Shown here: piece by piece, positions 6,787 to 35,053 of the stretch | Numbering within the stretch: the first letter of the stretch is position 1 | Layout of the letters: the number at the start of each line of letters is the position of its first letter | Assembly (NCBI GenBank): GCA_963820895.1 | Contig: CAWGBW010000004.1 | Span: forward strand, 10,023-74,022 | DNA: 64,000 nt | From: an uncultured Acidobacteriota bacterium | GTDB taxonomy: Bacteria; Acidobacteriota; Terriglobia; Terriglobales; Acidobacteriaceae | Reading direction: 5' to 3' | Translations under genes and position numbers: made by a program | Notes under the pieces: generated by a model | Seen by the model: the letters and a program-made list of their open reading frames with translations, nothing else | Told to the model about the DNA's origin: nothing | Databases searched by the model: none

Positions 6787-6873
6787 GCCATCGTGGCGGA
6801 ATTGGCAGACGCGCATGGTTCAGGTCCATGTACCGGCAACGGTGTGGGGGTTCGAGTCCCTTCGATGGCACCA
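6787..6873 (+). tRNA. tRNA-Leu (anticodon CAG), CCA encoded
   Basis: Acceptor stem GCCATCG/CGATGGC, anticodon arm CATGG-TTCAGGT-CCATG, long variable arm, T-loop GGTTCGAGTCC, terminal ACCA. Confidence 0.93.
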
Positions 6874-29941: not shown

Positions 29942-29973
29942 GGAGCACGGTTCGTCCGTGCTCCTTATTTTTT
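29942..29973 (+). terminator. Rho-independent terminator between convergent genes
   Basis: GGAGCACGG-TTCGT-CCGTGCTCC followed by TTATTTTTT. It overlaps the stop of the minus-strand ORF. Confidence 0.75.
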
Positions 29974-30969
29974 GAACCAGTACAGCAGGATGCCGTAGCC
30001 CACGCCCGCGGGATCGGTGGTGCGCGCGGTCTGGAATGCCATGAAGCGGCCATCGGTCGAAAGCACTGGATTTGACGCCTTGCCGCCCTCGTAGTCATTG
30101 AAGTGTGTCAGTCGCGTGAAGTCTTTCCCGGTGCCGTCTAGGCGTAGCTTCCAGATATCGATGTTTCCGGCACCGCGTGGTCCGCCAAGCTGTTCACACT
30201 GGCGATCGGCTTCGACAGCCGCGTACTGGCCGTCGGGAAAAATTCCTTCCACCTCGTTGTACGAGCCGGGCGCCTTCGAGAAATTCGTCACTTGCCCGCT
30301 TTGCAAATCGATTCCCATGACAGACGCGAGCCCGCCGGGCTCGTAACAAGTGAAGGTCATCTTGCTGTCATTGTCGTAGAAATCCTGCGCTTCGATTACG
30401 CAGTTTCGATCCTTACTCTCGTAGAGCGTTTTCTGATTGATCAGCCTCGGAGTTGAAGACAGATCGACGTCGGCCACGATCAGGAGGGACGCTCCCGGCG
30501 CCAGATCGGGAGCCTGCTCGGCCGTCTGTGAAAATGCGATCTTCAAGCTCTTCTTCGAGACGGCGACCCCTTCACTCATCTTCTGCCCAAACTTGACTGG
30601 CTTCGCGCCGCGCTGTTTGCTCAGGAACCACAGCTCGTTGTCACGCGTACGGCTGGCGTGGATATTCTCGAAATGATCGGGACCGATGAGGATGTAGTCG
30701 CCGGTCGTCAGATGCATCACGCGCAGAAAGACGGCAGCCGGCACATTGCAGGTCAGGCAGCGAATCTCGCGCGATTTCAAGTCGATGACCATCGCATCGC
30801 CGAAGCTCTTGGCCATGAACGCCACCCGCCGATTGTCGGGGGAGATATCGGCACGTTCTCCGAAGTGAGTGAGCACTTCGATGTTTGAGGGCAAGTGCTC
30901 CAGCGGATCAGCGGTCGATCGCTGACCCACCGGTAAAATCAGAGCCAGGATAGCGACAAGGATCCGCAT
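29965..30969 (-). CDS. Secreted beta-propeller (TolB/PD40-like) protein
   Basis: 334-aa ORF with a signal peptide and repeated ...SPDG/DGR..AF strand motifs. Confidence 0.6.
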   Translation of the reverse strand: MRILVAILALILPVGQRSTADPLEHLPSNIEVLTHFGERADISPDNRRVAFMAKSFGDAMVIDLKSREIRCLTCNVPAAVFLRVMHLTTGDYILIGPDHFENIHASRTRDNELWFLSKQRGAKPVKFGQKMSEGVAVSKKSLKIAFSQTAEQAPDLAPGASLLIVADVDLSSTPRLINQKTLYESKDRNCVIEAQDFYDNDSKMTFTCYEPGGLASVMGIDLQSGQVTNFSKAPGSYNEVEGIFPDGQYAAVEADRQCEQLGGPRGAGNIDIWKLRLDGTGKDFTRLTHFNDYEGGKASNPVLSTDGRFMAFQTARTTDPAGVGYGILLYWFKK

Positions 30970-31269
30970 TCCGGAATCCTACCAAAGGGAATCGTTGAAT
31001 TGCTCGACTGGCGCAGGAAGTGCGTGATTTTCACAGCTGAGCAAAGCAGAAAGTTCGCACGGCCAGATTGATCCTGTTCGAATACTGCGCGGAAAGCCGC
31101 GCAGAGAGCGGGTTTCACATCAAAATGAAATCCGTCTCTGCACAATTTCCGGTCACAGGCCTGTGAACGGCGTGCACTCGATTGAAAACAAGTGTAGTTA
31201 GGAAGGCGTGTTTTTCGTTGACGTAAAAGATAGAAGGAGTACAACAGGATCGTTCTTTGACAGCTTCTT

Positions 31270-31585
31270 AAGTTTTTCCGGTTGGTGCGGCGTCCGGGGC
31301 TCAAGCGAAGTCACCTTCGAAATCGCGAGATGGAGAAGGAGGGCAAGTAAGGGTCTATAGCAAAGCGCTGGTCGAGGCGAACGAAGAAGAAATGTTGAAG
31401 GCAGGATAGAGTTCCGAGGAGTAGGGTAGGTTTATCCGGTTGGCGGTGAGCCCGGAGCCCAAGCAAAGATCGCGCGCTGGTCCCCGCAAGGGAAACAGCG
31501 AAAGCAGGTCGAGCGAGGGTCATTAAGCGAGCTACTGGCCGAGACGAATGGACCCCACACCACCTCGGAACTCTCTTACTTTCCA
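31270..31585 (+). ncRNA. Candidate structured RNA (unassigned family, strand uncertain)
   Basis: No credible ORF. The plus strand is purine-rich. There are 33-nt direct repeats at 31278-31310 and 31436-31468, a perfect 12-bp complement between 31408-31419 and 31563-31574, and a 9-bp (+1 bulge) complement between 31294-31303 and 31447-31455. Confidence 0.3.
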
Positions 31586-31605
31586 GCCTTGCTTCTCTGC
31601 GTTGA

Positions 31606-32538
31606 TCACTGACGTCCTGCCATCTGGTCCGCGTGTCGTTGACTCCGCGGCAATTCAATATCAATTCCAACCATCGGGCCGTATACGTTGATGCCGTAAT
31701 TTGAATATTGCGGCGACGACAAGTTGCCGTTTGACAAGTGCATCCAGTTCAGGCCGGCGGAAATTGCATAGCGAGGGTTGATCTGGTAGCGCATCCCGGC
31801 GCCCATATTGATGTTGAAAGTGAAGTTCTGTCCTTGGGCGTAATAGACCCCTAGCGGTCCCTTGGCATTGATAAATCCCATGCCGGCGCGCACATCCCAG
31901 TAGGGCACGGCCCGCCAGTTCCGCGGAATGAAGTTGCGCCGCAGTCCCATGTCGTACGAAAAATACCGTGTCTCCGGGCCTCGCGGAATCGCAGTAGCGG
32001 ATGCCGTGAACGTGAGGTCCCAGTTGCCGCGCAAAACCGGCGGTCCCCAAATGCCACCCAGTTGCCATCGCACCGATGCCAGTACTGGAACCAGCGTGTA
32101 GCGGAGCGGGTACAAGTCATAGGGATCGCCTTCGAAAACGTCGAAGGGAAAGGGGACGTTGATGGGAAGCCATCCGACATCGAGAGAGAATTCAAGCTTG
32201 TGCCTAAAGAAGATGGTCTCGTTGAAGTCAGGCCTCGAGCGGCGTCGACTGACGACCAGCGGCGGGGTGCTGGGATTTCCCGTGGAACTCAACGTTGCCA
32301 TTGATTTCTGTCCAGGTGCGGAGCCGTTAACCTGGTCGCTGCTCAAATCCGAACTGTCGATGGAAGCCTGATCGATGCCAAGATTCGCGGCCCGATCGCC
32401 ACATCGTTGAGCTTCCGCGAGCGGCGCGAGAATGCTCAGCCCGGCCAGCAGGACGACCATGGCGACGTTGGCCCTATGGATTTCATTGTATGTACGGGAA
32501 AGTACTACGTACGCTTTTCCATCCGCCGGTGGCGTCAA
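31606..32538 (-). CDS. Acyloxyacyl hydrolase / PagL-like outer-membrane beta-barrel
   Basis: 310-aa ORF with alternating beta-strand pattern. The ...NWMHLSNGNL...YGINVYGPMVGIDIE end resembles lipid A deacylase-like proteins. Confidence 0.6.
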   Translation of the reverse strand: MTPPADGKAYVVLSRTYNEIHRANVAMVVLLAGLSILAPLAEAQRCGDRAANLGIDQASIDSSDLSSDQVNGSAPGQKSMATLSSTGNPSTPPLVVSRRRSRPDFNETIFFRHKLEFSLDVGWLPINVPFPFDVFEGDPYDLYPLRYTLVPVLASVRWQLGGIWGPPVLRGNWDLTFTASATAIPRGPETRYFSYDMGLRRNFIPRNWRAVPYWDVRAGMGFINAKGPLGVYYAQGQNFTFNINMGAGMRYQINPRYAISAGLNWMHLSNGNLSSPQYSNYGINVYGPMVGIDIELPRSQRHADQMAGRQ

Positions 32539-33269: not shown

Positions 33270-34040
33270 TTAACTGACCGCCTTCTTATGAAACTGCCGC
33301 AAGCCAATCCATAGCAGCGCAACATCGAAGACCAGCAGCATCAGCAAGATGGCAACGGGCGAGAGGTGGGGGAACTGCGGAACCAGCGCTGCGCGCAAGC
33401 CTTCGCTGGCATAAACCAGCGGATTGATCAGAACAAGTTTTTGCAGGATAGGAAACGTGTTGAGCGCACTCCAGGGATAGTAGGCGCAGCCGAAGAAGAT
33501 CATCGGCGTGATGACCATCCCAAACATTAATCCGACGTGTTGCTGGTTGATGCTGCAACCGAGAGCGAGACCTCCGCACGCAGAGAAGATTGCAATGAGC
33601 ACAATGATCGTGATGAACTCCAATGGTTGCTTGATGCTGATATCGACGCCAGGTCGAAGCACCAGCCAGGCCATCGGTATCACGACCAAGCCGGCGACCA
33701 GAGCCTGCAGCATTCCCGCGATGACTTTCTCGATGGCGATCCACGAGATATCGATCGGAGCTAGAAGGCGGTCTTCAATTTCGCGAGTCCACTGAAATTC
33801 GGCGATCAGCGGCATGCATACAGCCCAGATCCCGGTGAATACCATGCTGATGGCGATGATGCCGGGCAATAGCAGGCTCTTGTAACTCGCCGGCATGTAC
33901 CCGCTGCCGACCATCACGCGTCCGAAGATGAAGACGAACAGTAACGGCTGCAGAAAAGTCTGAAAGAGCAGTTGCATGGCATTGCGACGCGCAACATGCG
34001 CATCGCGGGCCAGCATCGCAGTGAAAGCTTTCCAGTTCAA
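33270..34040 (-). CDS. ABC-2 type transporter permease
   Basis: 256-aa, 6-TM protein with a 4-bp overlap with the upstream ATPase gene. Confidence 0.85.
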   Translation of the reverse strand: MNWKAFTAMLARDAHVARRNAMQLLFQTFLQPLLFVFIFGRVMVGSGYMPASYKSLLLPGIIAISMVFTGIWAVCMPLIAEFQWTREIEDRLLAPIDISWIAIEKVIAGMLQALVAGLVVIPMAWLVLRPGVDISIKQPLEFITIIVLIAIFSACGGLALGCSINQQHVGLMFGMVITPMIFFGCAYYPWSALNTFPILQKLVLINPLVYASEGLRAALVPQFPHLSPVAILLMLLVFDVALLWIGLRQFHKKAVS

Positions 34041-35053
34041 TCGCGCAAACTCCTTCCCGTATGGTGCAGAAAAAGATTTTCCAGGCTGGGCTCGGAGATA
34101 TGTACGTCGCGAAGTTCCGCGCCCGGGGCAATCGCAACTGCGGCGACTTCAGGGATCAGCGAACCCCCGCGGTCGGCGTAGATGTCCGCGCCGGTTGAGT
34201 CCAAGCTCCTCACCTCACGCACACCAGCAAGTGCCTGCAGCCTTTCGAGCAGTTCCGGCGTCTGCTTGCCGAATTGCAGGCGCAGCAGAAATCCGCCGGG
34301 GATTGACTGCTTCAACTCGCCGGGCGTTCCGATTGAGATGACCTTCCCGTGATCGATGATGGCGAGCCGCTGGCAGAGAGCGTCGGCCTCTTCCATGTTG
34401 TGCGTCGTCAGCAGCACGGTTTTGCCAAGCTGGTTGTATTCGCGAATGATCTCCCACAGCAGGATGCGCGTTTGCGGATCAAGCCCGGCGCTCGGTTCGT
34501 CCAGGAAAAGAACTTGCGGATCGTGCATCATGGCCCGGGCGATCGAGAGCCGTTGCATCATGCCGCCGGAGAATCCGCGAACCATCTGATTCGCACGATC
34601 CGTCAGCTTGAATTTTTCCAGCAACAAGTCGGCGCGTTCAATGCGCTCCTTGGAGGCAATGCCGAAGTAGGCGGCGTGGAACCTGAGAATCTCACGGGCG
34701 GTCAAAGAGAAGTCGAGGGTCGGCCGCTGCGGAACCACTCCAATCAGGCGCTTCACCTTTGCCTGCTCCTGCCAGACTTCGTGGTTGCCGATCCATGCTT
34801 GCCCGCTGGTCGCGTGAACGCGCGTGGTCAGCACACCGACCGTCGTCGATTTGCCTGCGCCATTCGGCCCGAGCAAACCGAAGATTTCGCCGTGATTTAC
34901 TTCGAGCGTCAAGCCGTCAAGAGCAGTGATCTGGGGTTTGGCCGGCTTCGAATTTTTTGCGTCGGCGCGAGCGATGAATCCTCCCGCGGCTCCGAGTGGA
35001 GGCGCGGAGGTGAAGACCTTGCGTAAATCGAGCGTACGAATGCCGACGGCCAT
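34037..35053 (-). CDS. ABC transporter ATP-binding protein (DrrA/CcmA-like)
   Basis: Walker A GPNGAGKST, signature FSGGMMQRL, Walker B LFLDEP. Confidence 0.9.
   Translation of the reverse strand: MAVGIRTLDLRKVFTSAPPLGAAGGFIARADAKNSKPAKPQITALDGLTLEVNHGEIFGLLGPNGAGKSTTVGVLTTRVHATSGQAWIGNHEVWQEQAKVKRLIGVVPQRPTLDFSLTAREILRFHAAYFGIASKERIERADLLLEKFKLTDRANQMVRGFSGGMMQRLSIARAMMHDPQVLFLDEPSAGLDPQTRILLWEIIREYNQLGKTVLLTTHNMEEADALCQRLAIIDHGKVISIGTPGELKQSIPGGFLLRLQFGKQTPELLERLQALAGVREVRSLDSTGADIYADRGGSLIPEVAAVAIAPGAELRDVHISEPSLENLFLHHTGRSLRD

Follow-up and report, generated by a model that had tools for sequence, protein, structure and literature searches.

A conserved RNA gene between two protein-coding genes

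In the window, by which we mean the whole 64,000-nucleotide stretch of DNA that was analysed, two minus-strand genes (29965-30969 and 31606-32538) are separated by a gap of 636 bp that holds no credible open reading frame (ORF). The first of these genes gives a weak match to PD40 beta-propeller proteins, just below the Pfam cut-off, and the second codes for a PagL-like outer-membrane protein. An earlier reading of this DNA from its letters alone (the sequence-only reading) likewise saw no convincing ORF in the gap, and we agree: no frame is conserved among 38 genus-level copies of the element described here, and open-frame lengths differ between copies. The element measures 499-505 nt across genus-level copies, whose lengths differ by 1-6 nt through indels that are not multiples of three.

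The same reading singled out positions 31270-31585 as a candidate structured RNA. This segment is indeed the body of an RNA gene, but the gene is larger. Judging from sequence comparison, it is as good as certain that 31139-31585 on the plus strand forms a gene in its own right, which specifies a highly structured non-coding RNA of ~335 nt that we have named twin-arm RNA. The gene is composed of a conserved upstream and promoter region (31139-31248, plus strand), delimited by its conservation, and a predicted transcript (about 31250-31585, plus strand) whose start and end are both assigned from sequence. Twin-arm RNA constitutes a discrete unit with sharp ends that is duplicated in this genome and in most sampled relatives. 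Similarity between the genomic copies ends sharply at window positions 31122/31138 and 31582, and the onset of conservation at 31138/9 is equally sharp in both genomic copies and across the family. Both conservation limits (31138 and 31582) lie well short of either flanking gene. Just outside the conserved gene there is a GC-rich 8-bp hairpin (31085-31104, GCGCGGAAAGCCGCGC), which is not part of the element because it is missing from the flank of the second copy.

Copies, loci and distribution

A whole-genome search revealed a second copy (copy B) at G000:C2:447641-448101 that is 97% identical over 461 nt. The genes flanking the two copies are unrelated, and no protein similarity was found between the genes on their 3′ sides. 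A search for homologues, one of the checks proposed with the sequence-only reading, recovered the RNA from 24 of the 24 genomes sampled for the genus, most of which carry two copies, at 80-90% identity. A feature shared at 80-97% identity by all sampled members of the genus goes far beyond chance.

At the level of the family, the RNA is present in 92 of 150 genomes, representing 86 of the 142 genera sampled. In a draw of genomes at the order level, a model of the arm (see below) matches 36 of 151 genomes and 17 of 39 genera; this tally and the family tally of 92/150 both include genomes G042, G065 and G245, which are flagged as unpublished and on which none of our claims depends. In a class-level draw, matches outside the family are limited to one genome. 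All of these counts come from sampled genomes, and absence means that the RNA was not found in those searched. Within the order-level draw, the arm model matches 0 of 38 genomes of genus g65 and 0 of 14 genomes of genus g69, and complete genomes of g65, g124 and g46 yield no match even at E values up to 1. Thus, twin-arm RNA is dispensable, since searches of complete genomes from several genera of this family did not recover it.

The 5′ signature of the RNA is carried by more than 119 genome contigs and by more than 120 metagenome contigs from soil and peat. The NCBI titles of carriers include uncultured Acidobacteriaceae, Candidatus Sulfotelmatobacter and metagenome-assembled genomes (MAGs) of Terriglobales. 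Two MAGs titled Verrucomicrobiia, L259 and L296 (DATKQB010000081.1 and DATJNK010000026.1), also have an exact 5′ signature at a contig end, and these contigs are probably mis-binned.

The genes around the RNA loci are informative with regard to the age of the duplication. For one locus, about 20 examples in the genus have cysM and a JAB-domain gene upstream. In the present genome, the region upstream of copy B (L002:2132-3347 on G000:C2) encodes a cysM-like cysteine synthase and a JAB/MPN-domain protein (desampylase/Mec-like), a pair that is conserved across the genus and looks like a thiocarboxylate-type cysteine pathway. Among loci compared at the family level, 10 of 22 adjoin an ABC-2 transporter pair, and others share further neighbours with copy B. 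Both RNA loci are evidently old, because they are syntenic across genera on the cysM-JAB side and on the ABC-2 side, respectively. In the window, the RNA is separated from an ABC-2 transporter pair (33270-35053) by the PagL-like gene. In other genera, the transporter genes are located on the upstream side of the RNA and on the opposite strand, and this placement indicates that the window locus has been rearranged. A search of these neighbourhoods for a partner protein returned housekeeping synteny only (the ABC-2 transporter, and cysM with the JAB-domain gene) and no RNA-binding candidate.

Of 16 genomes compared, 9 have copies that are 95-99% identical and closer to each other than to any copy from another species; in the other 7 the copies are about 83% identical and cluster by locus. 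The two loci are occasionally homogenised by gene conversion.

An element that occurs twice in a genome, that has sharp boundaries and within which draft contigs often break could also be regarded as a functionless mobile or decaying repeat, such as a MITE, a REP-type element or what is left of a duplicated segment. A decayed repeat was among the options listed in the sequence-only reading. We give this idea almost no credence. Most sampled genomes have two copies and none exceeds about two to three, synteny across genera is seen for both loci, the element is conserved across a bacterial family, no terminal inverted repeats were seen at the ends, and the compensatory substitutions described below imply selection on RNA structure.

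Structure and covariation of the two arms

Comparative modelling shows the RNA as a fold of two homologous hairpin arms of ~160 nt each. RNAalifold, applied to 38 and to 67 sequences, models arm 1 as a hairpin of ~157 nt (31250-31406, plus strand), and many of its pairs show compensatory changes. From base to tip, it is composed of a basal helix (31250-61/31394-406), a second helix (31264-68/31384-88), a long helix (31272-93/31360-82) in which CCGGUUGG pairs with CUGGUCGAG via conserved G-U pairs, an inner helix (31297-31312/31342-56), and a variable tip (31314-24/31329-39) capped by the GNRA loop GCGA at 31325-28. Arm 2 is modelled as a hairpin of ~167 nt (31408-31574, plus strand) on an alignment of 70 sequences (alignment A2). 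Its basal helix (31408-19/31563-74) is followed by further helices (31421-27/31552-58, 31430-47/31531-49 and inner helices) and by the tip CCC-GCAA-GGG (31483-92), and its internal-loop sequence AGCCCGGA (31449-56) is invariant. The final predicted feature is a U-rich 3′ tail (31575-31585, plus strand), which reads CUUACUUUCCA here and UUAUUUUUU in most relatives.

Both arms share the same layout, namely a basal helix, a long helix, an asymmetric internal loop with an invariant CCGG, and a GNRA tip. In the long helix of each arm, CCGGUUGG pairs with CUGG(Y)CGAG via conserved wobble pairs. The variable tips maintain a stem and a GNRA cap (GCGA, GCAA or GAAA) by compensatory changes. Moreover, the arms are homologous over their whole length: a hidden Markov model of each arm matches the other, and a covariance model trained on arm 2 alone matches arm 1 of every copy with 52-72 bits.

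Analysis of helix covariation, another of the proposed checks, gave a strong result. In the full RNA, 45 of 114 pairs covary (RNAalifold, 67 family-level sequences), and in arm 2 changes on both sides are seen at 24 of 46 pairs (alignment A2, 70 sequences). Within arm 2, 97.2% of alignment cells are paired, versus 32-45% after the partners have been shifted by 1-3 columns, and the observed values are reached in none of 500 shuffles. Several pairs are invariably or almost invariably wobble pairs (U-G in 70/70, U-G in 69/70 and G-U in 66/70 sequences).

Several features that had been picked out by eye find their place in this model. Two direct repeats were reported as 33 nt long; a repeat finder extends them to 42 nt (31269-31310 and 31427-31468, 76% identical), and they correspond to the homologous 5′ strands of the two arms. 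A perfect 12-bp complement (31408-31419 with 31563-31574) is the arm-2 basal helix, in which 8 of 12 pairs show compensatory changes among the 70 sequences. A mini-hairpin, CCC-GCAA-GGG, is real as well (31483-31492) and is the tip of arm 2, with a stem that covaries. In contrast, a suggested pairing between 31294-31303 and 31447-31455, which would join the arms, is not supported, with 32 of 67 sequences breaking the pair 31302/31448. The CCGGG/CCCGG core of this proposed pairing is invariant and therefore beyond the reach of a covariation test, and most of its bases pair within their own arm.

The strand of the RNA can be assigned with the same data. The invariant G-U pairs would be C-A mismatches on the other strand, and the assignment to the plus strand rests on covariation, GNRA loops, G-U-rich helices and the 3′ U-run. 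The minimum free energy calculated for the single sequence is −126.1 kcal/mol (z −2.14) on the plus strand and −99.5 (z −0.12) on the minus strand. According to our model, only the plus strand can form the twin-arm fold.

These observations bear on the possibility that the element regulates a neighbouring gene in cis, whether as a minus-strand leader with a tandem riboswitch or attenuator for the gene at 29965-30969 (the sequence-only reading had mentioned a tandem-aptamer leader on this strand) or as a 3′ UTR element of the gene at 31606-32538. Its location between two minus-strand genes would permit such a role, and its tandem modules do recall tandem aptamers. However, the G-U pairs and GNRA loops exist only on the plus strand, the z score of the minus strand is close to zero, the second copy and the orthologues have different neighbours (the downstream genes of the two copies being unrelated), and conservation stops before either gene is reached. 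We consider a cis-regulatory leader to be very improbable. A riboswitch or tandem aptamer read in the plus direction was also rejected; the downstream genes are convergent with it and differ between copies.

In almost all 70 sequences the U-run comes immediately 3′ of the arm-2 basal helix, and conservation ends there. Together with the arm-2 basal helix, the U-rich tail is therefore reminiscent of a terminator and is probably the end of the transcript. A simple terminator scan flagged nothing at this tail, which it missed because the ‘loop’ is about 140 nt long.

Upstream region and candidate promoter

The conserved stretch opens about 110 nt ahead of the RNA with a series of boxes (31138-31217, plus strand) that include CTGCAC (31138-43), CCTGTG (31160-65), GTGCAC (31172-77) and TTGAAAA (31182-88). 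Their information content is near 2 bits. A T-tract directly precedes the −35 element of a candidate promoter of the sigma-70 type (31218-31245, plus strand), which has TTGACG as its −35 box (31218-23), a 16-nt spacer and TACAAC as its −10 box (31240-45). The consensus of the upstream region for the family reads cTGCAC .. CCTGTG .. TGCACTC .. TGAAAA .. TTTT .. TTGACt, 16 nt, TAAAAa. Thus, the −10 consensus of the family is TAAAAa versus TACAAC here, and across the family there is little or no variation in TTGAC and TA.AA.

A start of transcription near 31250-31252 is predicted from this arrangement. The start site must be upstream of 31264, because covarying helices begin at 31264 or earlier, and this limit agrees with TTGACG at 31218, the 16-nt spacer and TACAAC at 31240. 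The sequence-only reading had already named TTGACG as a possible −35 box; the box is conserved, but its position is 31218-31223 and not 31217. A second candidate of that reading, TTGACA at 31257, can be dismissed as a −35 box. It falls inside the predicted transcript (31257-31262) and belongs to the boxA-like element discussed below. A simple promoter scan flagged nothing in the region, and it missed the candidate because the −10 box lacks the final T. Breaks in metagenome contigs fall inside the repeat and hence are uninformative regarding the start of transcription.

The upstream boxes are likely to be binding sites for regulators or UP-type sites, as judged from their sequence. In a comparison by eye with consensus sequences, none of the sigma-54, sigma-32, ECF and CRP-type patterns fits them. 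When the upstream region was compared with the whole genome by nhmmer in search of co-regulated promoters, only the two RNA copies were found. The A-tract and T-tract at 31183-31216 could form a hairpin, either as an upstream terminator or as a part of the RNA; pairing is possible, and covariation was not seen by eye.

A boxA-like element at the 5′ end

The predicted transcript carries near its 5′ end an element, ATCGTTCTTTGACAGC (31249-31264, plus strand), that resembles the boxA signal of rRNA operons and also serves as the 5′ strand of the arm-1 basal helix. The leader of the rrn operon of this genome contains the boxA GGTCTTTGACAAC, 182 nt before 16S, whose core is identical to that of the 5′ element of the RNA; the latter, CGTTCTTTGACAGC, agrees in its boxA sequence with that of its own rrn leader. 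In five other genomes of the family, the rrn boxA is GGTTCTTTGACAAC or a near-identical variant, 142-205 nt before 16S, and GGTTCTTTGACAAC itself occurs in the rrn leaders of three of these five. The published boxA consensus sequences are UGCUCUUUAACA for Escherichia coli and AUGAUCUUUGAAA for Bacillus subtilis (PMC13753749). Both have the UCUUU core in common with the element of the RNA, and that of B. subtilis also the G-A after it.

Exact TCTTTGACA is present in 72 of 78 RNA loci, and the 14 nt that follow the promoter, ATCGTTCTTTGACA, are the best conserved of the entire gene. About the first 13 nt of the RNA, which have the rrn boxA core, are frozen in sequence. Furthermore, the conservation of the arm-1 basal helix is one-sided: its 5′ strand is unchanging, and all variation in its 3′ partner consists of transitions that wobble pairing tolerates. 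In the basal helix of arm 2, both strands are freely exchanged (e.g., C-G in 37 and U-A in 33 sequences at one pair). Because the partner drifts and the arm-2 counterpart changes on both strands, the 5′ strand of arm 1 is under a sequence constraint that goes beyond pairing.

The boxA-like element is very probably transcribed, since covarying helices start at 31264 or earlier and the modelled basal helix uses 31250-61; it would occupy about +2 to +14 of the predicted transcript. Alternatively, its invariance could reflect a promoter-proximal signal in the DNA. The 12-mer boxA pattern occurs seven times in the genome, four of them beyond the named sites, and for this reason a match to boxA is by itself suggestive and not decisive. 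Between 23S and 5S of the single rRNA operon (G000:C2, about 414688), the sense strand of the spacer has a further CGTTCTTTGA string, which may be another boxA-like site.

Expanded tips and multi-arm versions

Several variations on this architecture exist among relatives. In some genera of the family, the tip of arm 1 is enlarged by 60 to about 370 nt, without extra arms. A genus of a sister family has four clear arms, and perhaps a fifth, arranged head to tail in one locus, with a single U-run after the last (multi-arm loci L121:139-932 on G031:C6 and L120 on G033:C45). The arm is thus a repeatable module, as judged by its four to five tandem occurrences with one terminal U-run. The sister-family arms have an A-rich loop in place of the invariant CCGG loop, and no boxA was seen in the 138 nt of sequence covered upstream of the first clear arm in the multi-arm locus.

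Comparison with known RNAs

At the gathering thresholds of Rfam 15, the only match in the window is a tRNA at 6787-6870, and a search of the region 30900-31700 at E values up to 10 gave only chance matches to eukaryotic families, far below threshold. Hence the Rfam comparison, also among the proposed checks, returned nothing relevant. In keeping with the impression given in the sequence-only reading, the RNA is none of RNase P, tmRNA, SRP or 6S RNA; genes for each of these, and for 16S, 23S and 5S rRNA, are found above threshold elsewhere in the genome. The proposal of that reading, an unassigned structured or large non-coding RNA, proves right. Word searches of the literature for such an acidobacterial RNA found no published description. 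Acido-1 (RF01686) and Acido-Lenti-1 (RF01687) are non-coding RNA candidates from Acidobacteria (PMC2864571), but neither model matches the region, even at E values up to 10.

Among stand-alone RNAs, 6S RNA (RF00013 and RF01685) and mycobacterial Ms1 invite comparison, as these are also rod-like, are a few hundred nucleotides long, and have their own promoter and no linked protein gene. It could be imagined that twin-arm RNA, a long and presumably stable rod of this kind, is a regulator of RNA polymerase whose arms mimic promoter DNA and sequester the holoenzyme or the core enzyme, for example during slow growth. Ms1 coexists with other systems that bind RNA polymerase. However, the 6S models do not match twin-arm RNA even at E values up to 10, and a canonical 6S gene is present above threshold elsewhere in this genome (RF00013, G000:C2:285161-285352, 58.9 bits). 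6S RNA is a single rod of ~180 nt with a large central bubble, whereas the twin-arm consensus has two arms and small loops; the largest of its conserved internal loops measure about 3 x 5 nt and, unlike the 6S bubble, have a conserved sequence. Nor does 6S RNA have two to five repeated arms. On balance, a 6S- or Ms1-like function is improbable.

Repetition of a hairpin unit is characteristic of RNAs of the CsrB/RsmZ type. These are likewise modular, and twin-arm RNA resembles them in carrying the same unit two to five times per transcript, in a number that depends on the lineage. However, its modules are about 160 nt and not about 20 nt. A role as a sponge of this type was rejected: GGA triplets are few and not conserved, and position 31403 is A or G, a variation that destroys the GGA at the junction. 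We know of no link between twin-arm RNA and CsrA.

Large RNAs such as raiA, OLE, ROOL and GOLLD share with twin-arm RNA an intricate fold, strong covariation and a restricted lineage. Twin-arm RNA differs from them in having no Rfam 15 match and in being a tandem duplication of one hairpin module combined with an rrn-type boxA.

A close parallel is the rRNA operon itself. In the predicted twin-arm transcript, as in an rRNA leader, a boxA candidate that is probably promoter-proximal and has the rrn core of the lineage, (G)TTCTTTGACA, would stand at the head of a long, untranslated and structured RNA, and the basal helices of twin-arm RNA enclose each unit much as processing stems enclose 16S and 23S. 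Unlike the boxA elements of rrn leaders, suhB and CRISPR arrays, the twin-arm candidate is followed by no rRNA, CRISPR array or protein gene, is positioned at about +2 to +14, and is also half of a helix. The arms show only short chance matches, none of them significant, to the rrn operon (16S/23S/5S and spacers). The idea that an rRNA fragment is supplied in trans was rejected; 23S matches its model over 1-2925 and 16S over 1-1533, and 5S is present. About 500 nt downstream of the genuine 5S gene, at G000:C2:413783-413894, there is another 5S-like match, which is weak (31 bits) and below threshold.

Possible functions of twin-arm RNA

Our best guess is that twin-arm RNA is a Nus-protected, abundant RNA with protein-binding arms. 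Stated in full, the proposal is that a modular RNA is transcribed in the style of rRNA under the protection of Nus factors, and that each of its arms presents a conserved surface for binding, probably of a protein. Taking the existence of this system and its mechanism jointly, we judge the proposal to be slightly better than an even bet.

The mechanism could proceed as follows. Transcription would be initiated near 31250 from the sigma-70-type promoter (TTGACG, 16 nt, TACAAC), with regulators probably bound at the upstream boxes. The nascent boxA might then recruit NusB/S10 and other Nus factors, as it does on rRNA operons. Nus loading would shield the long untranslated transcript from Rho and may aid its folding, and transcription would terminate at the U-run after arm 2. 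Each arm is envisaged as an independent module whose recognition surface would be formed by the invariant internal loops (AGCCCGGA facing GGGUCU-AAAGCGAGCU) and the conserved G-U run. If the partner of the arm is a protein, as seems most likely, then the RNA could act as a two-valent scaffold or decoy. It is also reasonable to speculate that the basal helices double as processing stems of the RNase III type, as in rRNA precursors.

Contacts with RNA or with a ligand would be just as compatible with the invariant loops as contacts with a protein. Perhaps, then, twin-arm RNA works without a protein, either as a self-assembling ‘ornate’ complex in which the palindromic CCGG loops kiss between arms or between molecules, or as a ribozyme or a ligand sensor. 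The arms have in common an invariant, unpaired CCGG at the corresponding place in an internal loop, each is capped by a GNRA loop, and conservation is very high in the non-helical parts. Furthermore, other large orphan bacterial RNAs are described as forming homo-oligomers (PMC12286853). Against this, the sister-family arms have the A-rich loop instead of CCGG, the invariant bases are beyond covariation testing, and the range of arm number (2 to 4-5) and the expandable tip of arm 1 speak against one fixed tertiary architecture. Overall, we regard a protein-free function as unlikely, if a little less so than one resembling that of 6S RNA.

Implications for the biology of Terriglobales

New here are the rrn-type boxA with its one-sided conservation, the upstream architecture, and the two old loci with their episodic gene conversion. 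To these can be added the multi-arm version in the sister family, the expandable arm-1 tip and the apparent absence of the RNA from several well-sampled genera. To our knowledge, large bacterial RNAs with so much conserved structure are rare, and each one that has been solved revealed new biology.

The host group of twin-arm RNA is the Terriglobales, which are dominant and poorly cultured bacteria of acidic soils and peat, and the RNA is represented there by two gene-converted copies and by hundreds of metagenome contigs. The boxA provides a first testable handle, as it suggests that this RNA is transcribed like rRNA under Nus-factor protection. The modular nature of the arm (about 160 nt) should ease the hunt for partners, for which a single arm should suffice, and a covariance model of the arm would let genome pipelines label what is currently a blank gap.

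A more ambitious interpretation, which we offer tentatively and consider possible but not probable, is that twin-arm RNA represents a new RNA class organised as an rRNA operon in miniature. Through a boxA of the rrn type, the Nus complex for antitermination and chaperoning would be loaded on a non-ribosomal gene, and the 160-nt arms would be released or displayed as multivalent modules, or might self-assemble. If this were true, then the control exerted by Nus factors and boxA would reach a stand-alone regulatory or structural RNA outside Proteobacteria, in abundant soil bacteria that are among the least cultured.
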